A stretch of DNA of 64,000 nt from a bacterium (GTDB lineage Bacteria; CG03): NCBI GenBank assembly GCA_043825615.1, contig JBDRRS010000012.1, positions 1 to 64,000 on the forward strand, read 5' to 3'. Under the pieces are notes generated by a model. That model saw only the letters and a program-made list of their open reading frames with translations, was not told the DNA's origin and did no database searches. Made by a program: the position numbers and the translations under genes. How positions within the stretch are numbered: the first letter of the stretch is position 1; every line of letters begins with the position of its first letter. Positions 40,844 to 62,356 of this stretch are shown here, one piece after another.

Positions 40844-42061
40844 TTATTTCATCTTCACTTTAATCAAATTAATTATTCGATTTGCCCGGCTTACTGCCTG
40901 CTGACGGGTTTTTCCGCAAACCAACACAGTACCTTTGCGCATAGTATGATTTTCAATATTAAATATTTTTTCTCCAACTTTTAAATTCACATCGTAATAT
41001 TTTACCCAATCCGGTAAAGTATCCCGTTTAGGGCAATTAATACTCTTTACAACACCGCTATCCACGAATAAAAACCTATTTGACTGATATACTTTATGTT
41101 GTAACTGTTTCGGAGGCGAGACTTCCTCCGCTAAAGAAATCGATATAGCGGCTTTAACTAAATTTATCCCATAAACCAGAGGTATTGTTATTGTTGAAAA
41201 AAAACCACCACTTAATCTTATCGCAACTTCAATGATATACGGCTGCCCGTTCTTAATAACAATATCCCCTTTCAAAACGCCATTTCTTATACCTATGGCT
41301 TTGGCAGCTGCATCTAAAATATTATTAAGTTTGCTTTTAATTTTAGAATAATATTTACTTGGCGTCTCCCCTCCGTTCTCTACCACAAACGGGTACGTTT
41401 TATCCAACATGGAATAATTCCTATCCGCAACGCCGCACAAATATGTTTTGCCGTTTAGCACCAGCGACTCCGTACTGATTTGCTGCCCAGACAACCATTC
41501 TTCTAAAATTAATTTCCCAAGTTTCGAAAATTGCTTTGAATACTCATATGCCCATGATAAATCCGAATCTTTATTAACTCTCACTACACCGCGAGCCCCC
41601 CGGCTGTCTATGGGTTTCAAAACAGATTCTTTGAAATATTTAATTTTATTTTTCAATTCTTCTTCTGAATTAATATCGGTGAATCCCCCAATCGGCAGAC
41701 CTTCTTCTTTAAAACATTTTTTCATTTTGTATTTATCGGTTGAAAGAACGGCCTGTTCCATACCAGGCGATGGTAATTTAAGGTATTCAGCAACTCTCGC
41801 TACAGATCTAACAGCATCACTCGCTATAGTTATTACCCCATTAATTTTATCCTTATCTCGATATGCCGCAACAGCTTCTAGTACTTCTTCTGGGTCATAT
41901 ATGCTGGCATGTATAAAATCATCTCCTATGTAATTTGCTGGAGCATTTACATTTCCGTCGCAAATAATCACCCTCAAACCCATTTCTTTGGCAACTGTTA
42001 TACCCTCAATAGCTTCTTGGCCGCCCGAAAGTACTAAAAGCGTCTTGCTTATCTGACCCAT
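40844..42061 (-). CDS. ATP-grasp domain ligase
   Basis: 405 aa with an ATP-grasp central domain (...VLKPIDSRGARGV...). Confidence 0.7.
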   Translation of the reverse strand: MGQISKTLLVLSGGQEAIEGITVAKEMGLRVIICDGNVNAPANYIGDDFIHASIYDPEEVLEAVAAYRDKDKINGVITIASDAVRSVARVAEYLKLPSPGMEQAVLSTDKYKMKKCFKEEGLPIGGFTDINSEEELKNKIKYFKESVLKPIDSRGARGVVRVNKDSDLSWAYEYSKQFSKLGKLILEEWLSGQQISTESLVLNGKTYLCGVADRNYSMLDKTYPFVVENGGETPSKYYSKIKSKLNNILDAAAKAIGIRNGVLKGDIVIKNGQPYIIEVAIRLSGGFFSTITIPLVYGINLVKAAISISLAEEVSPPKQLQHKVYQSNRFLFVDSGVVKSINCPKRDTLPDWVKYYDVNLKVGEKIFNIENHTMRKGTVLVCGKTRQQAVSRANRIINLIKVKMK

Positions 42062-42780
42062 GCTCCCCCGTTTACACTCAAAGTTTGAGCCGTCATATAC
42101 GACGATTCATCCGATGCTAAAAATATGGCGGCGCCAACCATTTCTTCATATCTTGCAAATCTCTTTATCAGCATTAAGGACAGCGCTGTCTCGCGCACTT
42201 CCGGAGCCATTGTCTTTTCAGTCAATTCTCCGGCGATCACACCCGGAGAAAGCGTATTAACACATATATTGCGCGACCCGAGAAAACGGGCAAGATTATG
42301 CGTCAACGCCATAACCCCCATTTTCGCGCAGGCGTATGAAGGAGTCCTCGGTCCGCCATATTCACCCGAGAGAGAACCGATGTTAATAATGCGCCCATAA
42401 TCCGTAATAAACGGCAAAACTTCTTGACAGCATCGGAATACACCCGTTAAATCGACATCTATAACTTCTTTCCATTCTTCATCTGTTTGCTTGTCAAAAT
42501 CAGCAGTTCTATTAATACCCGCGTTATTGACCAAAACATTAATATGCCCATACCGTTCCGCTACTTTCCTAAATGCCTCACGAACACTTCCGCGATCACG
42601 CACATCCAGAGGAAGAACTAATTCTGTGTTTAACTTCTTTGCCAACTCTTTTGCTTTTTGCTTCTGTGAAACATAAGTAATTACTACTTTTGCTCCTTCT
42701 TTTGCAAAACCCGCGGTTATGGCAGCCCCAATTCCCCTGCTTGAACCCGTCACAATGCACACTTTATCTTTTAAACGCAT
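42049..42780 (-). CDS. SDR-family oxidoreductase (FabG-like)
   Basis: TGSSRGIG cofactor motif and a YxxxK catalytic pair. Confidence 0.85.
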   Translation of the reverse strand: MRLKDKVCIVTGSSRGIGAAITAGFAKEGAKVVITYVSQKQKAKELAKKLNTELVLPLDVRDRGSVREAFRKVAERYGHINVLVNNAGINRTADFDKQTDEEWKEVIDVDLTGVFRCCQEVLPFITDYGRIINIGSLSGEYGGPRTPSYACAKMGVMALTHNLARFLGSRNICVNTLSPGVIAGELTEKTMAPEVRETALSLMLIKRFARYEEMVGAAIFLASDESSYMTAQTLSVNGGAWVR

Positions 42781-42791
42781 TATTCAACTCC

Positions 42792-43466
42792 TTAATCTAT
42801 TGACTCATATAATTCTCTCACGCTGACCGATAATTGTTTCCAACTATCCAAAAATTCCTTTTCGCCTAACTGAAAAAGCGGATTATTATAAACCTTCTCC
42901 CAACATGACGGCGGAACCGTTATTGCATCAGAACCGGCGATAATAGCGTCGATGAGATAATTAGGATCCCTTATTGATGCTGATAATAACTTCGTCGGGC
43001 TTTCCATTTTGACTATTGCCTGTTTCATCTGTGAAATAGCCTCAATATTACTTAAACCAAAATCTTCAACTCGCCCGATAAACAGACTCACATAATCCAC
43101 GCCCAGCTTGATAAACGGAATCGCCTGAGAAGGATGAAAAATCAATGTCACATTCATTTTGAGACCGGCGGCTTTCATATCCTGAGCGGCAAGAAGTCCC
43201 TGTACTGAAGCAGGAACCTTAATAACAATATTATCAGCTAATTTATTGAGTTTCATTGCTTGCTTTACCATACCTGCAGGATCAGGATGGGTCACTTCAA
43301 CGGAAATTGGACCGGAAACTAATGAAGCAATTTTTTTTATCTGCTCAACCGGCTCATTTCCCTCTTTTGCCAGTAATGCGGGATTAGTTGTAATCCCGTC
43401 GACAAGACCTAAAGGATTGTACTCCTTAATGTCTTCAATTGATGCCGTGTCTAGAAAATATTCCAC
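42792..43466 (-). CDS. Fructose-6-phosphate aldolase / transaldolase family protein (short form)
   Basis: 224 aa; MEYFLDTASIEDIKE...GVDGITTNP... is the Tal/FSA signature. Confidence 0.8.
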   Translation of the reverse strand: MEYFLDTASIEDIKEYNPLGLVDGITTNPALLAKEGNEPVEQIKKIASLVSGPISVEVTHPDPAGMVKQAMKLNKLADNIVIKVPASVQGLLAAQDMKAAGLKMNVTLIFHPSQAIPFIKLGVDYVSLFIGRVEDFGLSNIEAISQMKQAIVKMESPTKLLSASIRDPNYLIDAIIAGSDAITVPPSCWEKVYNNPLFQLGEKEFLDSWKQLSVSVRELYESID

Positions 43467-43525
43467 AAACCCTCCTTAATTCCGGTATTTCATAATTTTC
43501 GGAATCCAACACAAAATCTCACAAT

Positions 43526-44737
43526 TTACAAAATCTCAATTTCTGATTCGACTTTTTTCAAACTATCCAAAGCATTTTTATAGTTATCCCCCCTTACAAA
43601 CACACTCGCCACGCCGGATAAAGCACTTTTCGATTCAGCAGATTTAATATTATTCATATAAATAAACCAAGAAAACAAACCTTCTAATTTTTCGGGGTCA
43701 CTCTTAAAGCGAATTGCCTTGATATCCCGTTTTTTACTCAATATAACTTTGCACAGAGCCACTTTTGTTCTAGTGGGTTTTACATATGCTATATCGGGCT
43801 CGTCACCGACAATGCATTGTATCATAAAGTTGAAAGGTTTAATGCCCGTAGCTTCGGGAAATATTTGTAGTGACCCGTTTGGCCCGTGTAGCCGGGGAGC
43901 TATTTCAATAATTTTCAAGTCTCCTTCGCGGGTCAAAATAAAATCACCCCCTATCGGACCCCATTCTATACCCATGGCTTTAGCCGCTGTTTCGAGCAAA
44001 CTATAAACATTCTCGATTACCGCAGGGCTTTGCAAAGAAGGGCATATATTAAAATTCTCTACTGGATTATATTGCCTATATTCCTCCGTATCATTGGAAA
44101 AAAAACTGTCAGCAGTTCCACCGCGATGAAATTTGCCATCGCTGAATATCCCCTGAGCGTCAATAAAAGTTCCTGACAAGCACTCTTCCAATATTAGAAC
44201 GGGAAATTTGCTAACCTGCCTAACTTCAGTATATGCTTTTTCAATGCCACTTAGATTCTCAATCTTTTTTATACCTCTTCCCCCGCAACTATCAACAGCT
44301 TTCATAAACATATGCCCTCTGCCCAACTTTTTATAGGCTTTTTCAGCAGCCTTTAAAGAAGCTATTTCAAAATAGTCAGCTGTAGGCAAATTGTGTTTTT
44401 TAAAATTTCTTTTCATCAGGACTTTATTATCACAATTCATTACAACTTCAATGGAAATTGTCGGCAATGCCGTAGCCGAAGCCACAATAGCGACTGTGGG
44501 CGCCTGATTAATGAGCGTAAAGATACCGGATATATTCAGATGATCCTTGTTGAGCAATATCCATGCTATAAGACTTTGCACATCACGCGCATCTATATTA
44601 ACAGGAACATCTGCTTTTTCAAATGCGGGGGCTTTACCATTCATATCTGTTACAATAACCCTGTATCCCATATCTTGAATAATTCCGACGGCCTTACTTT
44701 CCTGAATCCCACCACCGACCATTACAACAGACTTCAT
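43526..44737 (-). CDS. ATP-grasp domain ligase
   Basis: 403 aa with an ATP-grasp fold (...FMKAVDSCGGRGI...). Confidence 0.7.
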   Translation of the reverse strand: MKSVVMVGGGIQESKAVGIIQDMGYRVIVTDMNGKAPAFEKADVPVNIDARDVQSLIAWILLNKDHLNISGIFTLINQAPTVAIVASATALPTISIEVVMNCDNKVLMKRNFKKHNLPTADYFEIASLKAAEKAYKKLGRGHMFMKAVDSCGGRGIKKIENLSGIEKAYTEVRQVSKFPVLILEECLSGTFIDAQGIFSDGKFHRGGTADSFFSNDTEEYRQYNPVENFNICPSLQSPAVIENVYSLLETAAKAMGIEWGPIGGDFILTREGDLKIIEIAPRLHGPNGSLQIFPEATGIKPFNFMIQCIVGDEPDIAYVKPTRTKVALCKVILSKKRDIKAIRFKSDPEKLEGLFSWFIYMNNIKSAESKSALSGVASVFVRGDNYKNALDSLKKVESEIEIL

Positions 44738-45981
44738 GACGCTTTCCCAGCGGTATTCATTTTTGCTTCTAATTTCCTCACTTCATTCTCCGCAGCAAGT
44801 AATGCTTTCTTACGAGATGGGCCTTTAGTTATAACCCATGCCACGACATCCGCCAACGATTTCGGAGAACAAACAATAGCTCCCGATGTTTTATTCCATT
44901 CACATATGATATCTTTCCCTATATTCAAACCTCTTGTATATAATGCAAGTTCACGTAACAACATCTTTTTGTTAGCAAACATAAAATGCAGAGCGCAAGC
45001 CTCTTTAAAATTAAAATCAGTATCCATGTTTTTTTTACCGATGGCAATGTTAATAAGAATATCATAAATATCAACATTAAGGGATCTGAATAATCTATCC
45101 AATTTCGCATCCATTAACATCCCAGCTTCCAACACATATAAAACCTTATCCTTTGTCAGAATAAGGTCTACGCTAAATAGATAATTATTTATTCCTAATG
45201 CTCGCACTGTTTTTGCAACAAGTCTCTTGATTCTCACATAGTCTCTATTCTTTTTACCCGTTTTATTCCTAATTCCCGCAACAAACCCAGAAGTAATAAA
45301 CGACTTTTTTCGACCAAGATTAAACTTGTCAATAATATCAACGATAAATACTTCCCCGTCATCAACGTAACCCGAAATATTCAATTGTTTGCCACGAATA
45401 TATTCCTCTATAATTAAAGGTTTTTTAAATTTGTATTTTCTCATATACTCCGCCATATCCTTACTCTTCCCAAAAAAATACACCCCTGCCGAACCCACTG
45501 AGTCTACAGCGGGTTTAACAACAACGGGAAATTTAAATTTATAATCTTTCATTGCGGATATTTCATCTTTATTCCGCAGCATAATATATTTAGGCGTAGG
45601 AATATGAGAATCAACTAAAATATTTTTCATCTTTTGCTTATTCGTAGTATTCTGCACCGCTTTAACAGAAAAGGATTTTATATTGAATTCTTTTGCAGCA
45701 AGAGCACACGTTTTAAGAGCCGCAGTAGACGATGAATAAGTTATAATACCCACCAAATTATATTGCTTTCGAAAATTACGTATTTCCTTTATTATTGATT
45801 CCGTATCATATATGCTTAATTCAATAAAAACATCCGCATACTTGCTACAAAACGCTTTTTTATTTTGGTCAAATACAAAAGCACATAAACATTTTTTCTT
45901 TGCGGTTAATACAAAATCAAGGTGTGATTTACTGCCACCAAGAATTATTAATACATTTAGTTTAGATTTATTTCTGCTCAT
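44734..45981 (-). CDS. ATP-grasp domain ligase
   Basis: 415 aa with ...FPVVVKPAVDSVGSAGVYF... Confidence 0.7.
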   Translation of the reverse strand: MSRNKSKLNVLIILGGSKSHLDFVLTAKKKCLCAFVFDQNKKAFCSKYADVFIELSIYDTESIIKEIRNFRKQYNLVGIITYSSSTAALKTCALAAKEFNIKSFSVKAVQNTTNKQKMKNILVDSHIPTPKYIMLRNKDEISAMKDYKFKFPVVVKPAVDSVGSAGVYFFGKSKDMAEYMRKYKFKKPLIIEEYIRGKQLNISGYVDDGEVFIVDIIDKFNLGRKKSFITSGFVAGIRNKTGKKNRDYVRIKRLVAKTVRALGINNYLFSVDLILTKDKVLYVLEAGMLMDAKLDRLFRSLNVDIYDILINIAIGKKNMDTDFNFKEACALHFMFANKKMLLRELALYTRGLNIGKDIICEWNKTSGAIVCSPKSLADVVAWVITKGPSRKKALLAAENEVRKLEAKMNTAGKAS

Positions 45982-46037
45982 AATGCCCTAAATAATTTTC
46001 ATATCTTTCCTTAACTATCATTTTATTTTCTTCGCTA

Positions 46038-47216
46038 TTAATCTTTTACGCAAACAAAAGCTACTGCATTTCTGGCTTTATCTAAATCACTGTAAACGCC
46101 GCGCGAAACGCCAAAGGATTTAACAATTCTAAATTGTTTCGACAATATTTTTTTTAGCCCCCCTGTCGTATATTCTCTATAATGTCCCGCATAATTTTCC
46201 GTTGCTTTAACCAACGGCTCATTATTATAAATAAATGGCCGCCTCATTCTCAGAGGAGCTTCTATAAAGAGAATTCCGTGTGCACATAACACTCGCGCGA
46301 GTTCTTTTAAGAAGAGACTATCTTTTTTTATATGTTCTATAGTATGAACTGACACCACCCTATCAAACAAATTTGACCCAAATCCTGTCTTAACAGCGTC
46401 GCTGGTTACATATTTCAAATTAGCCATTGAGTATTTTTTTTTAGCATATTCTATATATTCTTCCGAAATATCCACTCCTATGGCTTCCTTGCATTTTTTT
46501 GCCAAAATCGCTGTCCCATTACCCCACCCGCATGCCAAATCAAGAACACTATCGGAAGAATTGATATAATTCAAAGCATAAGCATATTCATGATAATAAA
46601 AATTTTTACCATAGTTCCATGCCACAGGAGCTGTTTCTACCATCTTTTTTCTTAACTGATAAAAATATCTATTTGAATAAATTGGAACATCATTATACGT
46701 TTCTGTTTTCCAAAGTTTTTTGGAATTTTCTTCCAAATAAAACCAAGGGCGAAATGCATATAATTTTTTAGTATCCGGTTCTTTTTGAAATATTGTTAAA
46801 AGAGCCGATATTGCTTTTTGTGAAACGACATCTGCTCCAAACTTAATATCGAAATCATAGGGTAATTTTAAATAATCAGCATTTGACTTTTCCATATGTT
46901 GCACCATACCAGCAATAAGAGGTACGTCCACATAAAACCAATCTATAAGTATCCTTACCACAATATCAGCACGATATTTTTGCAACACCTGATTCATTCT
47001 TTCAACTAAATTATTAGCGGATCCATAAAATATTTCCAAATTCCATTTCCTTGCAAAACCTTCAAGAATTCTATTCTCAGGTAAATCCGCTACAGCAAGC
47101 ACAATATCGCTGAAAATCCCTGAATTCTTAATTTTCCTGACAGAATAAAAGGCCTCATCTGTACTCCTGCCCTTTAGATCCGTATAATGGCACTGAATAA
47201 AACAAACCGATTTCAA
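46038..47216 (-). CDS. Two-domain protein: N-terminal cytidylyltransferase-like or unknown domain plus C-terminal class I SAM methyltransferase
   Basis: C-terminal VLDLACGWGNGT motif I; the N-terminal domain assignment is uncertain. Confidence 0.55.
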   Translation of the reverse strand: MKSVCFIQCHYTDLKGRSTDEAFYSVRKIKNSGIFSDIVLAVADLPENRILEGFARKWNLEIFYGSANNLVERMNQVLQKYRADIVVRILIDWFYVDVPLIAGMVQHMEKSNADYLKLPYDFDIKFGADVVSQKAISALLTIFQKEPDTKKLYAFRPWFYLEENSKKLWKTETYNDVPIYSNRYFYQLRKKMVETAPVAWNYGKNFYYHEYAYALNYINSSDSVLDLACGWGNGTAILAKKCKEAIGVDISEEYIEYAKKKYSMANLKYVTSDAVKTGFGSNLFDRVVSVHTIEHIKKDSLFLKELARVLCAHGILFIEAPLRMRRPFIYNNEPLVKATENYAGHYREYTTGGLKKILSKQFRIVKSFGVSRGVYSDLDKARNAVAFVCVKD

Positions 47217-48115
47217 ATTTTAATCCTCCTTTTAGCATAAATTATTGATTCCCTTCCAAGTCCTTCGTCAGCCAAAAAGCTATAAAATTTTTGTCTAAAT
47301 TTAGACATCCCCCTTTTAGATAAAATAATGTCCCAATTTTTTCTTTTCTTATGGCACTCTCTGCCAACGTCGTCATTACCAACATAATTCTCGCCCATAA
47401 TCAAAAACAATTCCATCGGAAACATTACATCTTTTTTAACTATGTCAAACCCATTACGTTCAACAAGACAAGAAATCATTTGTTGATTGAAATAATTAAT
47501 ATGAACTTTCGGAGAGAGCCAATATGGCGAAAAACCCTCTTTGAGAAGAAGTTTCTGAAAAGGATTATAATCATTTGGAACGCAAATACATAAAATCCCG
47601 TTAGGCTTAAGTAATTTCCAACTTTCCTGTAAAATTGCATCAGGACATGGCACATGTTCCATTACTTCTGATAAATGTACTACATCAAATGGCGCATAAC
47701 GACATAAATCGACCTCACCAAAAAGACCATTGATAACCTTTATTCCCATTTTTTTTGAATAAGAACAAGCTTTTTTGCCGGGCTCCACACCCAAAACATC
47801 CCAGCCTTTTTTTTTGCCATAATTTAAAAAATGCCCCAAACCACTCCCTATATCAAGAATATTGGGCTTTTTTTTCTTCGGGAAAAATTTTCTAAAATTC
47901 TCATACCTGTCAGAATAAATGAGATTCCACCATTCTAAGTCTTCACTGAATCTATCAGTATAAAGCGGCCTTTCTTCAATAAACTCATTCTGATAATATT
48001 TTTTCAATTTCTCATTAGAGGGATACGGTAAAATATGAATAAAACCGCAGGTTTTGCAGTCAATTATCCTGTATTTCCCTTTCTTATCAATAACTTTCCC
48101 TATATGCTTTTTCAT
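47213..48115 (-). CDS. Class I SAM-dependent methyltransferase with an N-terminal Zn-ribbon-like CxxC motif
   Basis: ILDIGSGLGHF motif I, preceded by CKTCGF. Confidence 0.7.
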   Translation of the reverse strand: MKKHIGKVIDKKGKYRIIDCKTCGFIHILPYPSNEKLKKYYQNEFIEERPLYTDRFSEDLEWWNLIYSDRYENFRKFFPKKKKPNILDIGSGLGHFLNYGKKKGWDVLGVEPGKKACSYSKKMGIKVINGLFGEVDLCRYAPFDVVHLSEVMEHVPCPDAILQESWKLLKPNGILCICVPNDYNPFQKLLLKEGFSPYWLSPKVHINYFNQQMISCLVERNGFDIVKKDVMFPMELFLIMGENYVGNDDVGRECHKKRKNWDIILSKRGMSKFRQKFYSFLADEGLGRESIIYAKRRIKI

Positions 48116-48127
48116 AATTACCTCTCC

Positions 48128-49102
48128 TCAATTTATAACAATTTTTGCTATTCTACAAGCTCCGGCAGAATCAACAACTTTTTTGAAATTATTCTGCTCT
48201 TCTATTATATCATTAACCGCTTCCCACACGGCGCGGCCTGTAACACTTTTATAATAACCCAAAGACTTAGTCAGATTTCTATTTTTCAGCAAAATAGAAT
48301 CCTTTTTGTCTTCCTTATAATTATTTATAACCACAACAGGTACCGAGAAATAATTGGCCTCATATATAGACACTCCTAAAGCCGTAATAAACAAATCCGC
48401 TGTGGATAAAATCTGCGGAAATAATTTACTGTCATCTATTACATCAACTTTCATTTCATATTTCGCAACGTAATCCCGTATAATTTGTTTGTTTTTGAAA
48501 GCCGAGCCTAATATAATTTTTATATTATGTTCTTGCAGATGAGCATTCAAAATTTTTAACATCTTCAATGATAAATTGTTCGGGTCTGCGCCGCCAAAAG
48601 AAATTAGTATATTCTTTCCTTTTTTTATAGTCTTCTTTTTTCTTTTATGCTTTAAAAAATCTTTTCTTAACGGAAAATACTTGGCGCCGTAATAAAGTTT
48701 TCCTTCAGCTTTGCTCCAATCCAGAGCGTCCGGATCAAAATGCTCAATGGGATAAATAACATTATTCACCAATAAACGGGCGTTCGTCGCGTTGTCCATC
48801 AAGGTAACCTTGCAATTATTCCGCTTTACTTTTCTTATTATGCCGCTTACATTTTTCTTGGAATCTATAAGAACCCGTTTATCTTTTATATTCAAATCGC
48901 ATTTTATAATAGAAGACACTGTTTGAAAAGGGAATTTATAGTTTTTCAAAGTCTCTGTGACGTTTTTTTCTTTGTTGACTATAAAAATAGGCGTTCGTCC
49001 TTTATCTCTTACGCGCTCGGCCACCGCGATAGATCTCATTAAATGACCCATGCCTATTTTTGAGCCGCCTTCCGTGATAAAAATAATTTCCTTATCTTTC
49101 AT
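48128..49102 (-). CDS. PseG-like UDP-sugar hydrolase / GT28 (MurG-like) family protein
   Basis: N-terminal TEGGSKIGMGHLMRS resembles the PseG GxGHxxR signature. Confidence 0.55.
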   Translation of the reverse strand: MKDKEIIFITEGGSKIGMGHLMRSIAVAERVRDKGRTPIFIVNKEKNVTETLKNYKFPFQTVSSIIKCDLNIKDKRVLIDSKKNVSGIIRKVKRNNCKVTLMDNATNARLLVNNVIYPIEHFDPDALDWSKAEGKLYYGAKYFPLRKDFLKHKRKKKTIKKGKNILISFGGADPNNLSLKMLKILNAHLQEHNIKIILGSAFKNKQIIRDYVAKYEMKVDVIDDSKLFPQILSTADLFITALGVSIYEANYFSVPVVVINNYKEDKKDSILLKNRNLTKSLGYYKSVTGRAVWEAVNDIIEEQNNFKKVVDSAGACRIAKIVIN

Positions 49103-49106
49103 AACA

Positions 49107-50030
49107 TTACATTTCCGGCCAATTGGCTGGATTCAGCCAGAATTTATCCGCTATCCCCATATCCAAAAGTTTATTATATTCCGTGTCCGGCGCTCTGCCC
49201 TCTTTTTCTGTTTCAAGAGCAAACGCAAGTTCATCCATTGATCTGACTCCTGCCAGAACCGACGATATACCTTCCGTTGAAAAACAGAACCTTAATGCCG
49301 TTTTTGTTAAATCCTCCCCTTCGGATAGATTCAAATCTCTTTTGATTTTACCGGCAGCTTCTTTCAAAACACTGAATCTGTCGTCCAGAAAGTCGGCCTT
49401 TTCCGTGAGAACGCCTTTCAGATAAGCTGAGCGGCTTATAATCCCCACGCCTTTTTTCACCGCTTCGGGAAAAACTTCCGTTCTCATCCTCTGGTCTAAA
49501 ATATTATAAGCAATCTGCAAAACATCAAAATACCCCGAATCCAGCGCCGCGATGGCGTTTTCCGGCTCGTAGACCGAAGCGCCTATAAATCTGACGATTC
49601 CCTTCTTTTTAAATTTAAGCAGCATTTCGGGAATATCCGAATGCAAAATTGTTTCCACCGTCGCATTATGTATCTGAACAATATCGAGGGCATCTCTTTT
49701 CAGATTTTTCAAACTTGCCAGCAATGATTTTTCAATGAACATCTCCGCGTTTTCGCCCGGCGGAGGGATATTAATTTTCGTCGCAAAATAACATTTTTCT
49801 CCGCCTAATATATCTCCGAGCAAATTTTCACTTTCTCCGTAAGCGGGCGCCGTATCAAACAAATTTATTCCCGAATCAACCGCTTTTTTAAGTATTCTTG
49901 CCGACTCCGTTCTGTCCGGCTTGCCATATTCACCCGGTTTTTTAATGCCGTAAGCCACTCCAAGCTCAACGGTTCCCAAACTTAAAGCCGAAACCAGCAA
50001 ACCTGTTTTTCCTAAAGCCCTGTATTCCAT
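49107..50030 (-). CDS. Aldo/keto reductase family oxidoreductase
   Basis: LGTVELG...DTAPAYG AKR motifs. Confidence 0.85.
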   Translation of the reverse strand: MEYRALGKTGLLVSALSLGTVELGVAYGIKKPGEYGKPDRTESARILKKAVDSGINLFDTAPAYGESENLLGDILGGEKCYFATKINIPPPGENAEMFIEKSLLASLKNLKRDALDIVQIHNATVETILHSDIPEMLLKFKKKGIVRFIGASVYEPENAIAALDSGYFDVLQIAYNILDQRMRTEVFPEAVKKGVGIISRSAYLKGVLTEKADFLDDRFSVLKEAAGKIKRDLNLSEGEDLTKTALRFCFSTEGISSVLAGVRSMDELAFALETEKEGRAPDTEYNKLLDMGIADKFWLNPANWPEM

Positions 50031-50034
50031 AATT

Positions 50035-51345
50035 CTAATTTTTCACAAACCTGTGAAAACCTCTCAGCGCAACGGGACATTCCAATTGCGATTCAACTTT
50101 TTCACCGTCAACGGCCTTTTTTATCTTCACAAAGACATCCTTCGCGGCTCTCAAATATTTATCAATGTGCTGTTTTTTGTGCGCATAGGACGGCTTGAAC
50201 TGCACCCACGCGAGAAAACCTTTTTTCAGCATCTCCTGAGTAAAATATGTTGTTATGGCAAGCTCATTTTTATAATCAAAAGAAAAATGGCAAAGTGTCG
50301 AGATGCCGGAAACATGTATTTTCAGACCCGTTTCTTTCGCTACATTTTCCAGCCCTTTCATGAACATATTGCCTATTTTTATGATGTGCTTCTCAACTTT
50401 ATTTTTTTTGTATTTTTTTATTGTGGCTATGGCCGCCGCGGGGCCGGTCCTTTCCGTCCAGTTAGTGCTGCTTATAAATGTTTTCTGGGCCGCCTGCATA
50501 ACTTTTCTTTTCCCTATTATGGCTCCTATAGGATAACCGTTGCCCATTGATTTGGCAAAAACCGCCATATCCGGATTGACTCCGAGCAAAAGATGAATCC
50601 CTCCGCATGTCATTCTGAAGCCGGTGGTTATTTCGTCAAATATCAAAATTGCTCTCGTTTTGTCGGCTATTCTTCTGACTTTTTTCAAAAAACTTTTATC
50701 GGGCATGCCTCTGGCCGGCTCCATTATTATGATGCCCAGTTCTTTCCCGTGTTTTTTTACAATATTTTCCAGTTCTTCCGTGTTGCCGTAATTAAAAGGA
50801 AATACCGTGTTTCTCAAACCGCGGGGAACGCCGCCCGGCGGAAGGCCGGGCATCAATGACCCGTCCAGCGCTTTTTTGCCTGACAAATTGGCCGCCAGGT
50901 ACCAGTCACACCAGCCGTGATAGCCGCAAAAAGCTATTTTATCTTTTCCTGAATATGCTCTTGCTATTCTTACGGCTATCGAAACGGCCTCGCCGCCGCC
51001 TCTGCAAAATCTCGCCATATCCGCCCAGGGATGAAGTTTACAAAGCATTTCCGCAAGCTCCACTTCTTCAGGGCAATTCAGCGTTGAAGCGGAACCGTTA
51101 TCAACGGCGTTTTTAACCGCTTTATTAACTTCCGCATCCGCATAACCGAGAACACACGCCCCTACGCCGAATATACTCATATCAATATATTTTTTGCCGT
51201 CCAGATCCGTGACTTCAACACCTTTAGCTTTTTTATAATACGCCGGCCACAAATCGGGAAGAAACATTTCCGGCCTTTTTGAAAAAAGCTGCGTTCCGCC
51301 CGGCATAACTTTCAGCGCCTTTTTATAAAGTTTTTGACCTTTCAT
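50035..51345 (-). CDS. Class III aminotransferase (glutamate-1-semialdehyde 2,1-aminomutase-like)
   Basis: 436 aa with the PLP fold type I and HemL-like N-terminal pattern (MPGGTQLFSKRP...). Confidence 0.8.
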   Translation of the reverse strand: MKGQKLYKKALKVMPGGTQLFSKRPEMFLPDLWPAYYKKAKGVEVTDLDGKKYIDMSIFGVGACVLGYADAEVNKAVKNAVDNGSASTLNCPEEVELAEMLCKLHPWADMARFCRGGGEAVSIAVRIARAYSGKDKIAFCGYHGWCDWYLAANLSGKKALDGSLMPGLPPGGVPRGLRNTVFPFNYGNTEELENIVKKHGKELGIIIMEPARGMPDKSFLKKVRRIADKTRAILIFDEITTGFRMTCGGIHLLLGVNPDMAVFAKSMGNGYPIGAIIGKRKVMQAAQKTFISSTNWTERTGPAAAIATIKKYKKNKVEKHIIKIGNMFMKGLENVAKETGLKIHVSGISTLCHFSFDYKNELAITTYFTQEMLKKGFLAWVQFKPSYAHKKQHIDKYLRAAKDVFVKIKKAVDGEKVESQLECPVALRGFHRFVKN

Positions 51346-51356
51346 AATTATTCTCC

Positions 51357-53528
51357 CTATTTTAATATATTAGAATTAACCTCAAATACAGTGATGCTTG
51401 ACGTAGCAAAAACTGGCTTTAATTCACTTCTAAATGGAAAATCCGACAAGCCGGATTTATAGTATAGTAAATAATTTATATTATACTTCCTGAATATTTT
51501 CTTAGCCAAACCAATATCCTTAATTTTGCTTAATTGCCGGAAGACTTCGTCTCTCTTATCAGTTTCGCTTTTGTAAATAACAGACATTGTCCAAACACTC
51601 TCAAAAAATGCCCGCCTGCCGGTAAACGCAGAAAAAATATGTCCCTTTTGCCGGTTGCTAATTATCACTGAATTAACAGGTGTTTTATCTCTTAAAAAAC
51701 AATACGCCAAATATTGATCCTTATTAAATTTTTGTACATGTGAAACGTTAATTGGGTTTCTCTTTTCAGCTATGAGCAATGACCGTGGGAAAATATAATT
51801 AAAAAACATAATTGTGCATGTAACAAATAAACTTTTTTGATAAAAAAATGTTTTCGTACCCAGTAATACTTTTATTTTCTTATAGAACAAATTAAAACCA
51901 CTTATCCCTAAAATTACAGAAAACAAACTTACAATTGTTGCTGAATGCCCCGCTACATTCCATGATGTAAATCGACCGGCATCTTCCTGAATAAGAAAAA
52001 GACTTACAAAAATTACTCCAAGCCATCCCATAAAAATGCTGTAATCAAGGAAATTTAAAGTTTTAGACCTTATTTTTTTAACAATATATACCAATATAAA
52101 AGGGAAATAAATCCCCGGCATCCTTATGAAAAATTGAATAAAAATTACAACAATCCGTCTTATATCTACTGGCAAACGTCCGACAAGGTGTAAAATTTTT
52201 CCTGTTATAAAGTATTGACTATATACATGATCTGCATATAACCCATATTTAATTCCTATTTTGGCCACTACAGGCGACTGCATAGAATAAAATATGAATA
52301 TAATTCCAAAGCAGACAATAAATAAAAAACAATACAGGTAACCCCTGTTATAGATTTCACTTTTCTGTTTATGATTTTTTCTTGAAAAAGCAGAGGGAAC
52401 TCCATACAAATAAGATAAATCTTTGTAAAAATACTGCTTGTATATATGTACCAGCCCAATAATTACAGCAAAAGATGGAAATATAACAATAAAAAAATTT
52501 GCCTTAAATTGAAACATTACTATAGAAAAGAACGCTGCCATATAAAGAAAAACAATCCTTTTCTGTCGGTCAAAAAAATTAAGAGAGAGGAAAAATCCCA
52601 TATAAATCAAAAACCCAGCATATGCCGGAGGGTTATGAAAAAGATATTTTAAAAGTCCTGCATTATCATTTCCTATGATCGTTACTTGCCCATTTGTGAA
52701 AAAATACAAATAAAACATTATAATGGCTACATAGCCCATTACAGTGGAAGTTGTCAGCCTTCTGATTAAAATAAATAAACTTGAGGCAAACAAAATATCG
52801 CGGAAAATGGGAAGAAAAATATGATAGATTTGAAACATATCTATCTTGCTGAATTTTGCCATAACAGCTATAAACACATCGGGAAATACATGATATACTG
52901 GAAAGGGATATCCCGCCAAGCAAGGATTTTGCTGAGGCGGACAGTTTTTTAAAATTTCCTGCACAAAACTTAAGTGGATTAAATGATCATGATATTGTGT
53001 ATAAATAAATTTAAAAGGGGATTCAACCAAAAAATATTGTAAATCATGAGCATTAATAATTATTACCAAACAAATTAATAGAAGAAGCATAAAATCGACT
53101 TCTTTTATTTTATGCGATATCACAACATTTTTCTTTTTCAAAGCACCAATTAATATATACATATGGGAAACTACCGCTAATCCGCAAATAGCAAAATATC
53201 CCATTTCAAAACCTATCCCACTTAGAACAAAGAAAAGAGCAGTGGTCAGAGGATATCCAATAAGACAGGAGAAAACAATTTTTTCAAACAAATTTAAATT
53301 ATTTATTTGCGCTAACCATACAACTGCCCATCCTATTGAAAATACAAGAACATATATTGAAAATGCAAACCCGTAAAATTCTTTCCAAGAAAAAAATAAA
53401 AAACTTCTTAAAAACAAAACAGTAAAAATTGAGATGGCAATTATTCCAAACACTTTCAATTGGTTTTTTAAAACATCTGATAAATTAAACTCTCTATGGA
53501 ACAATAAATAATTAAGAGTTTTTTTCAT
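51357..53528 (-). CDS. Large polytopic membrane protein, a candidate GT-C-type glycosyltransferase/oligosaccharyltransferase-like enzyme
   Basis: 723 aa with more than 14 predicted TM helices; no soluble catalytic motif identified. Confidence 0.4.
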   Translation of the reverse strand: MKKTLNYLLFHREFNLSDVLKNQLKVFGIIAISIFTVLFLRSFLFFSWKEFYGFAFSIYVLVFSIGWAVVWLAQINNLNLFEKIVFSCLIGYPLTTALFFVLSGIGFEMGYFAICGLAVVSHMYILIGALKKKNVVISHKIKEVDFMLLLLICLVIIINAHDLQYFLVESPFKFIYTQYHDHLIHLSFVQEILKNCPPQQNPCLAGYPFPVYHVFPDVFIAVMAKFSKIDMFQIYHIFLPIFRDILFASSLFILIRRLTTSTVMGYVAIIMFYLYFFTNGQVTIIGNDNAGLLKYLFHNPPAYAGFLIYMGFFLSLNFFDRQKRIVFLYMAAFFSIVMFQFKANFFIVIFPSFAVIIGLVHIYKQYFYKDLSYLYGVPSAFSRKNHKQKSEIYNRGYLYCFLFIVCFGIIFIFYSMQSPVVAKIGIKYGLYADHVYSQYFITGKILHLVGRLPVDIRRIVVIFIQFFIRMPGIYFPFILVYIVKKIRSKTLNFLDYSIFMGWLGVIFVSLFLIQEDAGRFTSWNVAGHSATIVSLFSVILGISGFNLFYKKIKVLLGTKTFFYQKSLFVTCTIMFFNYIFPRSLLIAEKRNPINVSHVQKFNKDQYLAYCFLRDKTPVNSVIISNRQKGHIFSAFTGRRAFFESVWTMSVIYKSETDKRDEVFRQLSKIKDIGLAKKIFRKYNINYLLYYKSGLSDFPFRSELKPVFATSSITVFEVNSNILK

Positions 53529-54315
53529 TGATATTGTTCCTTTGCATATTCTTTTTATTAAAATCTTTGTCCGTTTTTAAGGACTGCAAATAACCTTCAT
53601 TTCTTATAATATGCATATTTATTTTTGCCAACTCCGGTTTCCTCCGTAGTAACTTGAATATATCCTGATATGTGAAATTTTTTTTATCTTCTTTGCAAAG
53701 TTCATCAAAAATAGCCTTCAAAAACTCATAATCTTCCGGCTCGTCAATAGTCCATCTATAATTTACTTTATTCCTGAACTTTTTGTAGCCACCCACTTTA
53801 AACCGGTCTTTGCTTTTCTCAATAAAAGCGCCAGCGACATGCTCCCTTTCCGACGGTAAAATTGTCTCTTTAAAGGCCTCTTCCAGCGCTTTAAACGAAT
53901 ACACCGTCACATCAAGACCGTCGGGAAAATCACCAGACAAACCGTAATAATCAAAGCCGCCTTTTATAAACCGTTCCACCACCTCATCAACTATGCCCGG
54001 ATCTATTACAGGGCAATCCGCCGTCACTCTGACAATATTATCCAAGCCGTATTTTTTCGCCGCGTAATAATACCTCGCAAGCACGTCGTTAAGACTACCG
54101 AAAAAAACAGGAATCCCCAGTTCGTCCGCAACTTTTTTCAATTTCCTATCCGATTTTTCGGTTGAAGTGGCAAGAATAACACAATCAAGCTTCCGGCAGC
54201 TCTTCAATCTCTTTAAAACATGCCATAGAACCGGCTTTCTTGATAAGGGCAAGAGCACTTTTCCTGGCAATCTTTCGGAGCTCAGTCTTGCTTGAACAAT
54301 TGCACCTGTTTTCAT
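53512..54315 (-). CDS. Acylneuraminate cytidylyltransferase family protein (CMP-nonulosonic acid synthetase, PseF/SpsF-like)
   Basis: N-terminal AIVQARLSSERLPGKVL signature. Confidence 0.75.
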   Translation of the reverse strand: MKTGAIVQARLSSERLPGKVLLPLSRKPVLWHVLKRLKSCRKLDCVILATSTEKSDRKLKKVADELGIPVFFGSLNDVLARYYYAAKKYGLDNIVRVTADCPVIDPGIVDEVVERFIKGGFDYYGLSGDFPDGLDVTVYSFKALEEAFKETILPSEREHVAGAFIEKSKDRFKVGGYKKFRNKVNYRWTIDEPEDYEFLKAIFDELCKEDKKNFTYQDIFKLLRRKPELAKINMHIIRNEGYLQSLKTDKDFNKKNMQRNNINEKNS

Positions 54316-59356: not shown

Positions 59357-60214
59357 TTACTTTCTGATCTTTAATATCGGCCTTAACCCGTCTTTAGTAT
59401 CAGCCCTCCATTCTCTTTCAGCTAACTCAATTCCAGCGGGTTCTTTTAAACCCGTACCGTCAGCAGTAAAACTTTCTCTTATGTCTTTTATAACCGCGCC
59501 GATTTTATGAGGCAGCCAGCAGTGCCCCGATTTAAATTCCTCGCCTTCTCCGTCCAGATCCAGATGAAACTCTACAATCCGCGCCTGCCATCTGCACACG
59601 GCTCGCCATATAACATTTTCTTTAACCGTATGATCGGACCAGCCGACGGGACAATTAAATTTATCGGCGAGTGTCTTTATCGCCGCTAAATTACAGTCTT
59701 TGACCGGAACAGGGTAAGACGAAACACAATGAAGAAGAGACATGTCTTCACAGCCCGAATCCCGCAAGACCCGCACCGCTTTTTCAACCTCTTTTAACGT
59801 GGCCATGCCCGTTGATAGAATAATCGGTTTCCCCGTTTTCGCGCATTTCTTCAGCAAATCATCCCACAGCAATTCGTAAGATGCTATTTTATAAAAATCT
59901 ACATACGGCAATAATTCATCCACAGCATCCAGATAGAAAGGAGTGCATGAAAACTCTATACCTTCGTTTTTACATGCCTGGGCTAATTCGGGCAGAAAAG
60001 CGACGGGAAGCTCCCATTGCTTTCTTTTCTGAATTTCTTTGTTTTTTTTGACAATTTCCGGCGCGAAAAGTTTATCTATTTTGAATAATTGAAATTTTAC
60101 CGCATCGCAGCCTATTTCCGCCGCTGTTTTAATAAACCTTAAGCATCTTTTCAAATCCCGATTATGATTGCTTGAAACTTCGGCTATAAATTTTACAGAA
60201 TTTTTATTTCGCAT
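59357..60214 (-). CDS. NeuB/PseI-family nonulosonic acid synthase, short form without the C-terminal SAF domain
   Basis: VKFIAEVSSNHNRDL...DAVKFQLF TIM-barrel motif; 285 aa. Confidence 0.75.
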   Translation of the reverse strand: MRNKNSVKFIAEVSSNHNRDLKRCLRFIKTAAEIGCDAVKFQLFKIDKLFAPEIVKKNKEIQKRKQWELPVAFLPELAQACKNEGIEFSCTPFYLDAVDELLPYVDFYKIASYELLWDDLLKKCAKTGKPIILSTGMATLKEVEKAVRVLRDSGCEDMSLLHCVSSYPVPVKDCNLAAIKTLADKFNCPVGWSDHTVKENVIWRAVCRWQARIVEFHLDLDGEGEEFKSGHCWLPHKIGAVIKDIRESFTADGTGLKEPAGIELAEREWRADTKDGLRPILKIRK

Positions 60215-61373
60215 TTTTCAGAACAATCCTCCTGAAAACTTTTATCACATAATTCTGCGATTTCTTATCCAGTGATGGAAAAATGGGCAGACTGATACAT
60301 TCTCCGTAATATTTTTCTGCGTTTTTTAGGAAAACATTTTTACAAATATACTTTTTATAATACGGTTGTTGGTGTATCGGGATGTAATGCACTTGTGGGA
60401 ATATTCCGGCTTTATTTAAATTTGCGAATAGTTCTTTTCTGTTAATTTTCAGTTTTTCAAATTTTACGCGCAGCACATACAAATGCCATGAATGTTTTTT
60501 ATCCTTCTTGGTATATTCGGGCAATCCGACAAATTTACTAATCTCTCTAAATGCTTCATTATATCTTCCGGCAATTTGCCGCCGCCGGGCTACGAATTTA
60601 TCTATTTTTTCAAGCTGGCTGATTCCCAAAGCGCATTGAAAATCCGTAATCCGGTAATTAAAACCCAAATCCCTCATTTCATAATACCACTGACCTTTTT
60701 TTGCCGTGGAACTGTCTTTGTAAATTCCGTGGGTTTTTAACGCTTTTAATTTTCTATAAAGTTTTTGACTGTTTGTGGTAATAGCTCCGCCCTCACCCGT
60801 CGTGATATGCTTAACCGGATGAAAACTGAAAACCGTCATATCGGAATATCTGCAATTTCCAACTTTTTCCCATTGTCCGTTGATTTTATACTCGGCACCC
60901 AAAGCATGACAGGCATCCTCAATAATCATAATCTTATTTTTTTCAGCTATAAAGAATATTTCCTTCATGTCACAAGGGCACCCCGCGAAATGGACAGGAA
61001 CAATCGCTTTTGTTTTATTTACGATTTTGCTTTTTATCTTTTCGGGAGAAATGTTTGCGCTATCATAATCAATATCGGCAAATATCGGTTTCGCTCCCAC
61101 ATATAAAGCGGCATTCGCCGTTGACAGAAAAGTAATCGGCGTCGTTATAATCTCATCACCTTTTCCAAAGCCCGCCGCGAGATAAGCCAAATGAAGCGCC
61201 GCTGTGCCTGATGAAACGGCAACCGCATATTTCGCGCCGCAGAATTTCGCAAGTTTTGTCTCAAATCCCTCAATTTTAGGACCTTGCGTAAGCCAGTCAG
61301 AGCTCAAAACCGCCATTACCGCCTTTATGTCCTCTTTGTCTATGTGCTGTTTTCCGTAAGGAATTTTATTCAT
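60204..61373 (-). CDS. DegT-family aminotransferase, PseC-like; the start is taken at the Met at 61373 (MNKIPYGKQ), which overlaps the pseB stop by ATGA
   Basis: IPYGKQHI...TTPITF motifs typical of PseC/ArnB-like enzymes. Confidence 0.8.
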   Translation of the reverse strand: MNKIPYGKQHIDKEDIKAVMAVLSSDWLTQGPKIEGFETKLAKFCGAKYAVAVSSGTAALHLAYLAAGFGKGDEIITTPITFLSTANAALYVGAKPIFADIDYDSANISPEKIKSKIVNKTKAIVPVHFAGCPCDMKEIFFIAEKNKIMIIEDACHALGAEYKINGQWEKVGNCRYSDMTVFSFHPVKHITTGEGGAITTNSQKLYRKLKALKTHGIYKDSSTAKKGQWYYEMRDLGFNYRITDFQCALGISQLEKIDKFVARRRQIAGRYNEAFREISKFVGLPEYTKKDKKHSWHLYVLRVKFEKLKINRKELFANLNKAGIFPQVHYIPIHQQPYYKKYICKNVFLKNAEKYYGECISLPIFPSLDKKSQNYVIKVFRRIVLKNAK

Positions 61374-62356
61374 CAATATTTTTCTTTCTTTGCCATGGCT
61401 TTTAAATCGTTTACCGTCAGCCATTTCGTATTGTTATCGCTTCTGTAACCTTTAAACCCAATTCCTAAATATTTGCCTTCTTTCGCCTTCTTTTTCAACC
61501 GTTTCACAACCCGCGCATATATCGCATATTTATCTTTAAATTCATAACTGAATGGTCCATCGTCCTCACTTAGAAGCGTTTCATTCAGTTTCTCACCGGG
61601 ACGAATTCCTATTATATCCTGCCGGCAGTCAGGACAGATGGCTTTAGCGAGGTCCGTTACTTTCATGCTAGGAATTTTGGGGATAAAAATCTCTCCGCCT
61701 ACCATATCTTTCAGACATGATAACACAAAATTAACACCCTGTTCCAAAGTTATCCAGAATCGTGTCATTCGCTCATCAGTAATAGGCACTACCCTTTTCT
61801 TTCTGCATTCCTTAAAAAACGGCACGACACTGCCCCTCGAACCAAAAACATTGCCATACCTGACAACACTGAACTTTGTTCCCCGCGGTGAATAATTATT
61901 CGCCGCAACAAACATTTTCTCTGCGCAAAGCTTTGTCGCTCCGTAAAGATTAATAGGATTCGCCGCCTTATCTGTACTGAGAGCAATAACTTTTTTGACA
62001 CCGTTGTCTATCGCAACATTTATAACATTTTCCGCACCCATTATATTTGTCTTTACCGCCTCAAACGGATTGTACTCCGCCGTCGGCACAATTTTCAAAG
62101 CCGCAGCATGAATAACAATATCAACGCCGTTAAATGCCCGATGCAGCCTGTCGGCATCTCTGACATTCCCTACAAAATACCTTAAATTCCTGTATTTAGC
62201 ATCACTAAATTCCTTTCTCATTTCATATTGCTTCATTTCATCCCTGCTGAATATTATCAATTTCTTTGGTTTATATTTCCTAAGAACTATTTCTGTAAAT
62301 TTCTTACCGAATGAACCTGTTCCCCCTGTTATCAAAATGACTTTACCATTTAACAC
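61373..62356 (-). CDS. pseB: UDP-N-acetylglucosamine 4,6-dehydratase (inverting), PseB/FlaA1/CapD family
   Basis: MLNGKVILITGGTGSFGKKF...YGATKLCAEK, the YxxxK short-chain dehydratase. Confidence 0.85.
   Translation of the reverse strand: MLNGKVILITGGTGSFGKKFTEIVLRKYKPKKLIIFSRDEMKQYEMRKEFSDAKYRNLRYFVGNVRDADRLHRAFNGVDIVIHAAALKIVPTAEYNPFEAVKTNIMGAENVINVAIDNGVKKVIALSTDKAANPINLYGATKLCAEKMFVAANNYSPRGTKFSVVRYGNVFGSRGSVVPFFKECRKKRVVPITDERMTRFWITLEQGVNFVLSCLKDMVGGEIFIPKIPSMKVTDLAKAICPDCRQDIIGIRPGEKLNETLLSEDDGPFSYEFKDKYAIYARVVKRLKKKAKEGKYLGIGFKGYRSDNNTKWLTVNDLKAMAKKEKY

Follow-up and report, generated by a model that had tools for sequence, protein, structure and literature searches.

The window analysed here is a stretch of 64,000 nucleotides of bacterial DNA (GTDB lineage CG03; positions 1 to 64,000 of the forward strand of contig JBDRRS010000012.1, assembly GCA_043825615.1). 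Within its glycan locus lies a block of ten genes at positions 40844-51345. The ends of this interval are exact boundaries of open reading frames (ORFs), the last ATP-grasp ORF ending at 40844 and the aminotransferase ORF starting at 51345. All ten ORFs are on the minus strand, as is every long ORF of the window, and they are spaced by at most 59 nt or slightly overlap; the ten-gene block is real. It encodes three ATP-grasp ligases (A, B and C), an enzyme of the transaldolase/fructose-6-phosphate aldolase (Tal/FSA) family, a short-chain dehydrogenase/reductase (SDR), an aldo-keto reductase and a class-III aminotransferase, a sub-cluster that an earlier note on this DNA had described and with which ORF boundaries and Pfam matches agree. 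That gene list was correct in what it named and left out a PseG-like gene and two methyltransferases. We lean towards reading the block as the tailoring part of a pathway for a pseudaminic-type (Pse-type) nonulosonic acid (NulO), in which an ATP-grasp ligase would join a hydroxy-acid to an amine of the sugar. As the earlier note had supposed, the block is an addition outside the canonical Pse/Leg pathways, here a non-canonical one within a Pse-type NulO pathway. Domains were called by Pfam and NCBIfam scans using the equivalog cutoffs of NCBIfam, and the family scans of the glycan locus took in ORFs of at least 150 aa between 18340 and 63663.

The block is one instance of a recurring gene set. 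Ligase C, the core ligase, has about 87 close relatives, nearly all metagenomic; a profile search recovered 1388 proteins at E<=1e-30, and 415 loci in a species-representative genome collection encode a relative. The best 80 of these 415 loci were fetched and a synteny table was built by tblastn (individual loci carry L numbers). The denominators used below are the 65 loci with enough upstream sequence and the 41 that are fully flanked, with at least 9 kb on both sides. The 80 loci span Nitrospirota, Desulfobacterota, Acidobacteriota, Chloroflexota, Planctomycetota, Actinomycetota, Gammaproteobacteria and Campylobacterota, and the presence of the same gene set across so many phyla takes the association far beyond chance. 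Co-occurrence in other genomes, which the earlier note had proposed as a check, is thus observed, and the genomes concerned carry the set in glycan loci. Two short contigs binned as archaeal, L011 (a Nitrososphaerota metagenome-assembled genome (MAG), 9.5 kb) and L019 (a Promethearchaeati MAG, 2.7 kb), hold close ligase C homologues (60% and 45% identical) beside SDR and transketolase genes, through either horizontal transfer or mis-binning.

Directly upstream of the ligase C homologue, 56 of the 65 loci encode a ketol-transfer enzyme, which is a split transketolase in 25, a split thiamine diphosphate (ThDP) enzyme in 19 and a Tal enzyme in 12. The same upstream stretch includes an SDR in 47/65. 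The ATP-grasp gene overlaps or abuts the SDR and ketol-transfer genes in nearly all loci, and in the window the stop codon of the SDR overlaps the start of ligase C; this arrangement suggests that the ligase uses the product of those enzymes. Among the fully flanked loci a GH57-like gene is present in 40/41, making it a near-obligate and the tightest partner of ligase C. Genes of nonulosonic-acid synthesis commonly lie close by: NeuB is found in 24, a cytidylyltransferase in 25, PseC in 18 and PseB in 13 of the 41, and 25 show a weak PseG-like tblastn match (19-35% identity). Homologues of the 300-aa methyltransferase of the block occur in 18/41, and those of the 392-aa methyltransferase, whose N-terminal ~200 aa form an uncharacterised domain, in L002, L003, L007, L009, L025, L030, L040 and L047. 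Maf or flagellin genes lie within 10 kb in 12/41. The aminotransferase accompanies the cassette in 17 of the 41 loci, and 15 of these 17, versus 3 of the other 24, also have an aldo-keto reductase or a GFO oxidoreductase; in L002 and L003 a GFO_IDH_MocA oxidoreductase takes the place of the aldo-keto reductase. The earlier note had made its proposal depend on aldolase and aminotransferase being kept in syntenic loci, and in this respect it held only in part, both being present in some loci and replaced or missing in others.

The arrangement with three ligases, A-B-(Tal or transketolase)-SDR-C, is found again in L079, L088, L025 and L054. L068 is laid out in a related way, ligase A being accompanied by a second C-like ATP-grasp and a ThDP enzyme. 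By its gene content the block is classed as a Tal-type, triple-ligase, polysaccharide-locus variant of a widespread cassette. When the core ligases were placed in a neighbour-joining tree, 26 changes of ketol-transfer type were counted along the leaf order, against a random expectation of 43 +/- 4. Sequences linked to Tal form four separate runs of this order, and the transketolase-linked L005 and L011 lie among those of the window's group. The tree indicates that the ketol-transfer type clusters only partly and that this module has apparently been swapped repeatedly, a mixture that fits a constant carboxylate end with a variable distal end.

One cultured carrier is Solidesulfovibrio carbinolicus DSM 3852. 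Its 133-kb plasmid pDCAR1 holds a complete transketolase-type cassette (L091, 79532-108701) in the order NeuB, pseF, methyltransferase, FabG, transketolase N, transketolase C, methyltransferase, ATP-grasp, "glycoside hydrolase", pseB, pseC. The cassette-specific genes bear generic PGAP names only, and no pseH, pseG or pseI is called there. Genes for radical SAM, SIS-domain and PfkB-kinase proteins flank the cassette. This strain offers a practical experimental organism for studying it. Further cultured carriers are Plasticicumulans acidivorans DSM 23606 (L071) and Desulfospira joergensenii.

The three ligases of the window are pairwise 25-31% identical, a divergence that marks them as old paralogues and not recent duplicates. 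All three score above the Pfam gathering score of ATP-grasp_3, ATP-grasp_4 or ATP-grasp. For each of them the best matches among solved structures are BL00235 (3vot), an L-amino-acid ligase, and 4dim, a protein from structural genomics, at low identity with E 1e-8 to 1e-13. Ligase C exceeds the LAL_C2 cutoff (35.6 bits vs 29.4) and carries the ExAxR(L)xG motif; ligase B has the canonical ExAPRLHG motif and no LAL_C2 match; ligase A scores 17.3 bits for LAL_C2, below the cutoff, and has (E/D)xGxLLDAK in place of ExAxRLxG. In the subfamily of ligase A a lysine may stand in for the missing catalytic arginine. Homologues of ligase A with the same gene position and the (E/D)xGxLLDAK motif occur in L025, L054, L068, L079 and L088, and homologues of ligase B in L020, L025, L054, L075, L079, L084 and L088. 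Judged by these matches the enzymes are L-amino-acid-ligase-like and amide-ligase-like, in line with the amide-bond formation that the earlier note had supposed for them. Since such enzymes activate small acids, we count this family assignment in favour of hydroxy-acid ligation. Identities as carbamoyl-phosphate synthase (CPSase), Ddl, PurK or PurT were rejected, all NCBIfam equivalog scores being far under cutoff, and the housekeeping roles that the earlier note had named as the contrary outcome are not borne out.

The Tal/FSA enzyme appears from its residues and relatives to be a transaldolase of the short TalC type and not an FSA. Its best PDB relatives are the transaldolases 1vpx (E 2e-50) and 3s0c, in a range of 2e-50 to 1e-42, and E. 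coli FSA is far more distant at ~1e-26; TIGR00875 gives 192 bits against a cutoff of 246. In an alignment referenced to E. coli FSA (checked to be identical to 1L6W), the window protein and all 19 locus-linked homologues have Glu at the position of FSA Gln59 and Phe at that of Tyr131, and the Schiff-base Lys and both phosphate-site Arg are conserved in every one of them. From work on TalB F178Y and TacTal F132Y, this Glu/Phe pattern is reportedly established as a mark of transaldolases. Such enzymes take a dihydroxyacetone unit off a ketose phosphate, hand it on to an aldehyde and release no free triose. The two residues thus argue for an enzyme that would move a dihydroxyacetone unit and provide no free triose for serinol. 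The only exact match of the protein is on a 1.4-kb metagenome contig.

The SDR adjoining Tal is strikingly conserved, being 73-86% identical across distant phyla (L002, L003, L009, L012, L017, L020, L022, L079, L088). In these same Tal-type loci the identity is 37-71% for Tal and 38-59% for ligase C. SDRs that adjoin a transketolase or ThDP enzyme share just 31-46% identity with the window SDR. In a third Tal-linked subtype (L024, L072, L073) two Zn-dependent alcohol dehydrogenases flank Tal and replace the SDR, and a B12-radical-SAM gene lies between the ligase and the GH57-like gene, beside Maf.

The typing of the aldolase bears directly on the route suggested in the earlier note. There, the aldolase would supply a triose for amination to a serinol-like amine, and the ATP-grasp ligases would couple this amine through an amide bond to an acidic sugar, a nonulosonic or uronic acid. 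The block does contain a class-III aminotransferase and two oxidoreductases, the C1 carboxylate of a NulO would be available as a substrate, and ATP-dependent amidation of glucuronate with serinol phosphate has been proven in Campylobacter jejuni HS:2 (Cj1435-Cj1438; PMC11800397). Against this route stands the Glu/Phe pattern of a transaldolase where an FSA has Gln and Tyr. Furthermore, Tal is replaced by a transketolase or ThDP enzyme in 44/65 loci and the aminotransferase is absent from 24/41. A uronic acid as the partner is disfavoured, as the UDP-glucose dehydrogenase/uronic-acid dehydrogenase family (UDPG_MGDP_dh) has no match among the scanned ORFs. Nor do the ligases resemble Cj1438C, which belongs to PF14305 (E 1e-37; sequence from the supplement of PMC11800397): against the three ligases BLASTP and phmmer gave E >=0.15, and tblastn against the whole window gave E >=3.8.

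The chemistry of a related system points the same way. In Shewanella oneidensis MR-1 the flagellin modification operon sfmABCDE (SO_3261-SO_3265) is required for a flagellin glycan whose inner part is a 274-Da mono-N-acetyl pseudaminic-type sugar, C11H18N2O6, a NulO one N-acetyl short (PMC3765264). The outer unit, C9H16O7, C10H18O7 or C11H20O7, is nitrogen-free and bears O-methyl groups confirmed by nuclear magnetic resonance (PMC3765264). A nitrogen-free unit combined with a missing N-acetyl group suggests the opposite polarity, in which the sugar gives the amine and the side chain the carboxylate, and it speaks against an amine side chain on an acidic sugar. We consider the serinol-like route quite unlikely, and the earlier note was probably wrong both on this route and on the partner that supplies the carboxylate.

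In the hydroxy-acid pathway that we favour, PseB and PseC would make UDP-4-amino-4,6-dideoxy-L-AltNAc as the source of a free amine, which would be left unacetylated because no GNAT-type PseH was found among the scanned ORFs. The transaldolase-type enzyme would add a C3 ketol unit to an anionic aldehyde acceptor and so produce a small polyhydroxy acid; in the related loci a transketolase or ThDP enzyme would add a C2 unit instead. The SDR would then reduce the ketone of the ketol product, the pair of aminotransferase and aldo-keto reductase could perform amino/oxo/hydroxy interconversion on the chain or the sugar, and the two methyltransferases would methylate. Ligase C would activate the carboxylate of the acid as an acyl phosphate and join it to the sugar amine, replacing PseH acetylation, and ligases A and B could add further amide-linked units. 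The divergent PseG-like, short NeuB and KdsB-like enzymes would process the bulky intermediate to a CMP-sugar, and the final sugar would here enter a Wzx/Wzy-type polysaccharide and not flagellin. The identities of the genes, their conserved synteny, the residue-level typing of the transaldolase and the family of the ligases are shown. What we infer for this pathway is the nature of the acid and of the acceptor amine, the sequence of the steps, and the parts given to the aminotransferase, to ligases A and B and to the GH57-like protein.

A more specific version of the scheme is speculation. In it the ketol unit would be added to aspartate semialdehyde, the ketone reduced and the resulting amino acid ligated, after which its 2-amino group could be transaminated to 2-oxo, reduced to 2-hydroxy and O-methylated. 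Such a sequence would use every enzyme class of the block and would reproduce the acyl group of Treponema denticola flagellin, which carries a 2-methoxy-4,5,6-trihydroxy-hexanoyl nonulosonic acid according to PMC13439194, citing Kurniyati 2017. An acyl group of this kind would be expected from ketol transfer, ketoreduction, O-methylation and amide ligation. The scheme does not yield the C9 formula of S. oneidensis. Aspartate semialdehyde with a C2 unit was also tried for the C9H16O7 unit and fails, giving C6. A reduced 3,9-dideoxy-nonulosonate fits the formula C9H16O7, and is pure speculation.

The functional unit is wider than 40844-51345 and extends downstream through the GH57-like gene (38889-40838). 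The protein scores 67.7 bits for PF03065 against a cutoff of 21.2. An AlphaFold model built from a 45-sequence alignment has a pLDDT of 90.3 and a pTM of 0.90, and the predicted fold is consistent with a GH57 (beta/alpha)7 barrel plus beta-sandwich. Foldseek ranks the Thermococcus litoralis GH57 4-alpha-glucanotransferase and GH38 mannosidases at the top (1k1x, E 4e-25). Residues E122 and D221 never vary and line up with the E and D of the 1k1w motifs ER and DDGE, which we take to be its catalytic pair, Glu123 and Asp214. The protein belongs to a large family, of which more than 3500 members reach E<=1e-20. A role as deacetylase was set aside, given the invariant aligned Glu/Asp and a fold like that of GH57/GH38 hydrolases. 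Action on alpha-glucans is doubtful for this sequence in the present setting, and we know of no function of the GH57 fold in nonulosonic acid metabolism.

This protein provides the main support for a different assignment, in which a higher-carbon sugar or alditol would be O-linked to the NulO, possibly by the GH57-fold protein as a transglycosylase, and the ATP-grasp ligases would act elsewhere, for example on amino acids or on a free amine. It is the tightest partner of the ligase and has invariant Glu/Asp at the catalytic-motif positions of 1k1w. C9H16O7 is also the formula of a deoxy-nonose residue, and in S. oneidensis the outer unit is source-labile and the inner NulO behaves as if it had a free basic group (PMC3765264). 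However, none of the modified glycopeptides gave an oxonium ion of the outer unit (PMC3765264), and the ATP-grasp gene overlapping or abutting the SDR and ketol-transfer genes suggests that the ligase uses their product. The precedent of T. denticola is moreover an N-acyl group (PMC13439194). We regard O-linkage as unlikely.

The block is part of one long operon-like array. Upstream of it the order is PseB, PseC, short NeuB, WbqC, GT2, methyltransferase and NeuD-type acetyltransferase, followed by a dTDP-4-amino-4,6-dideoxygalactose transaminase, the KdsB-like cytidylyltransferase and a protein with 13 transmembrane segments. Downstream come the GH57-like gene, Wzx, a 613-aa protein, a methyltransferase, an AsnB-like amidotransferase, glycosyltransferases and Wzy. 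The functional unit includes, on the upstream side, the genes for the CMP-transferase, the short NeuB, PseC and PseB, up to 62356. Coordinates and family matches are given in Table 1.

Table 1. Genes of the block and neighbouring genes of the glycan locus, with the family matches on which each call is based
Feature	Coordinates	Strand	Family match or other basis
Class-III aminotransferase, glutamate-1-semialdehyde (GSA)-aminomutase-like	50035..51345	-	Pfam Aminotran_3 E 1.6e-45
Aldo-keto reductase	49107..50030	-	Pfam Aldo_ket_red E 7e-37
PseG-like nucleotide-sugar hydrolase, GT-B type	48128..49102	-	TIGR03590 E 1e-32, 113.9 bits vs cutoff 153.55
S-adenosylmethionine (SAM)-dependent methyltransferase, 300 aa	47213..48115	-	Pfam Methyltransf_23 E 5e-22
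SAM-dependent methyltransferase, 392 aa	46038..47216	-	Pfam Methyltransf_11, residues 225-318
ATP-grasp ligase A	44734..45981	-	Pfam ATP-grasp_4 + ATP-grasp_3
ATP-grasp ligase B	43526..44737	-	Pfam ATP-grasp + ATP-grasp_3
Tal/FSA-family transaldolase-type enzyme, 224 aa	42792..43466	-	Pfam TAL_FSA E 3e-44
FabG-like SDR	42049..42780	-	Pfam adh_short_C2 E 2e-62
ATP-grasp ligase C, core ligase	40844..42061	-	ATP-grasp_3 50.7 bits, LAL_C2 35.6 bits, both above cutoff
GH57-fold protein, 649 aa	38889..40838	-	Pfam Glyco_hydro_57 E 1.4e-18
Polytopic membrane protein, 723 aa	51357..53528	-	~13 hydrophobic segments, then soluble C-terminal part
CMP-sugar cytidylyltransferase, divergent, KdsB-like	53512..54315	-	Pfam CTP_transf_3 E 2e-27
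Short NeuB-family nonulosonate synthase, 285 aa, without SAF domain	59357..60214	-	Pfam NeuB E 3e-65
PseC aminotransferase, UDP-4-amino-4,6-dideoxy-beta-L-AltNAc-forming	60204..61424	-	TIGR03588 516.8 bits vs 423.5
PseB, inverting UDP-GlcNAc 4,6-dehydratase	61373..62356	-	TIGR03589 491.3 bits vs 407.75; Polysacc_synt_2 E 5e-100

By the NCBIfam cutoffs PseB and PseC are true equivalogs. The short NeuB stays under both the PseI and the NeuB equivalog cutoffs (183.6 vs 340.25 for PseI); its homologues of 283-290 aa are found in the related loci and include S. oneidensis SfmA. The cytidylyltransferase gave no PseF equivalog match and only weak KdsB models, and the PseG-like gene of the block is the sole gene of its kind among the scanned ORFs. 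The class-III aminotransferase is not HemL: the best HemL-model score is 254 bits against a cutoff of 486, with 212 vs 527 for TIGR00713, and among its PDB relatives are aminotransferases for aldehydes and ketones. The locus encodes Wzx and Wzy, and the Maf (MptE-like) and flagellin families gave no match among the scanned ORFs.

The 723-aa protein sits between the cytidylyltransferase and aminotransferase genes. It gave no Pfam or NCBIfam match and has no counterpart in the related loci. It could be a GT-C-like transferase, and its membership of the module is uncertain. Both this and the 613-aa protein were considered as Maf and rejected, as they have no similarity to Maf.

The operon also contains a second amino-sugar route, with a DegT-type dTDP-4-amino-4,6-dideoxygalactose transaminase at 54312-55475 (PRK11706 equivalog, 575 bits, above cutoff) and a NeuD-type hexapeptide acetyltransferase (56402-57061) adjoining it. 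The ligases might instead serve this other amino sugar, or build a peptide-like substituent unrelated to the NulO. This 4-amino-sugar pathway does lie in the same operon, and L-amino-acid-ligase-like enzymes typically join amino acids. In the 80 loci, though, the DegT387 homologue and the acetyltransferase do not travel with the cassette, whereas NeuB, the cytidylyltransferase, PseB and PseC do, and we hold this assignment to be very unlikely.

Other features of the locus concern its decoration and composition. A GDP-fucose-synthase-like gene at 62587-63663 scores just under its cutoff. Methyltransferases are unusually many, at least seven across 25-58 kb, and the locus further encodes a radical SAM/SPASM protein (23604-24593), an AsnB-like amidotransferase (32847-34703) and a WbqC-family protein. 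Together the methyltransferases, radical SAM/SPASM, WbqC and AsnB-like proteins point to a heavily decorated repeat unit. The guanine-plus-cytosine (GC) fraction is ~0.45-0.50 in 1-20 kb vs 0.30-0.40 across the glycan locus (20-62 kb), a drop which suggests that the surface-glycan region has been horizontally exchanged or is otherwise compositionally distinct.

Several observations weigh against ligation of a hydroxy-acid to the sugar amine. Ligase A lacks the usual catalytic arginine motif, and 9/65 loci are without any ketol-transfer enzyme. The NeuD-type acetyltransferase (56402-57061) could in principle acetylate the PseC product. The outer unit of S. oneidensis is easily lost in the ion source, a behaviour more typical of an O-linkage (PMC3765264). 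The putative homology to the Sfm system is one of architecture, sizes and domain families only, and the link to T. denticola is chemical only. Finally, what the aminotransferase, the GH57-like protein and two of the ligases would do is conjecture.

Motility and recognition by phages and by the immune system are shaped by the nonulosonic acids that flagella, capsules and O-antigens carry. To our knowledge, the known N-acyl diversity of NulO arises from CoA-dependent acyltransferases. The cassette may represent a widespread modular pathway for decorating NulO, with swappable ketol-transfer enzymes, an SDR and methyltransferases, a CoA-free ATP-grasp ligase and a non-glucan GH57 protein, the window being a triple-ligase variant; we put this forward tentatively, as somewhat short of probable. 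The type of ketol-transfer enzyme would then set the chain length, and the pathway would be found in many bacterial phyla and possibly in some archaea. If true, an ATP-grasp route that draws on interchangeable ketol-transfer enzymes would diversify NulO in a different manner, and apparently a very common one. It would also provide the first non-glucan context for a large GH57-like family and would make testable a question that has stood since 2013, namely the nature of the 236-264 Da unit of Shewanella flagellin and its making by sfmB-sfmE.

The layout of the cassette is known genetically from one species, S. oneidensis, and the cassette is biochemically uncharacterised. In the literature on ATP-grasp, transaldolase or transketolase in combination with pseudaminic/nonulosonic acid or flagellin glycosylation, only the Shewanella paper was found to be relevant, and a 2023 preprint refers to the sfm genes as "proteins of unknown function" making heavily modified Pse (bioRxiv 10.1101/2023.12.03.569772). 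The sfmABCDE operon comprises a NeuB of 290 aa, an IlvB-like ThDP enzyme, an SDR, a 395-aa methyltransferase (SfmD) and a 412-aa ATP-grasp protein, and lies between two Maf genes beside PseB and PseC, without canonical PseH, PseG, PseI or PseF; its ATP-grasp mutant showed a somewhat smaller mass loss than the other sfm mutants (PMC3765264). The window likewise has a short NeuB, a C-C bond-forming enzyme, a FabG-like SDR and PseB/PseC alongside, and its 392-aa methyltransferase and ~410-aa ATP-grasp ligase match SfmD and the Shewanella ATP-grasp in size and position. The ThDP-enzyme layout of sfmABCDE is shared by the related loci L007, L030, L035, L040 and L045. The window differs in having a transaldolase-type instead of a ThDP enzyme, three ATP-grasp ligases instead of one, an additional pair of aminotransferase and aldo-keto reductase, a GH57-like gene, and a Wzx/Wzy polysaccharide locus in which no Maf or flagellin was found. 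No Shewanella is among the best 80 of the 415 loci, and no protein named as Shewanella or Treponema came up in the protein searches.

With the canonical Pse pathway of Campylobacter and Helicobacter (PseB-C-H-G-I-F) the window shares PseB and PseC equivalogs, a PseG-like, a NeuB-family and a cytidylyltransferase gene. It departs from that pathway in that no PseH was found, the PseG-like and NeuB proteins are below their cutoffs, the cytidylyltransferase is KdsB-like and ten extra tailoring genes are inserted. The C. jejuni HS:2 system resembles what we propose for the window in forming an ATP-dependent amide bond for a surface polysaccharide. There, however, the sugar gives the carboxylate, for which a UDP-glucose dehydrogenase is needed, an enzyme with no counterpart found among the scanned ORFs, and the ligase Cj1438C is a TupA-like ATP-grasp to which the window ligases have no detectable similarity. 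Closer to the window ligases are the L-amino acid ligases BL00235 (3vot), BacD and RizA, with which they share a presumed acyl-phosphate mechanism and, in ligase C, the LAL_C2 domain; the window ligases lie in a glycan locus and not in a peptide antibiotic cluster. The T. denticola glycan supplies a chemical precedent for a NulO that carries an O-methylated polyhydroxy acyl group.

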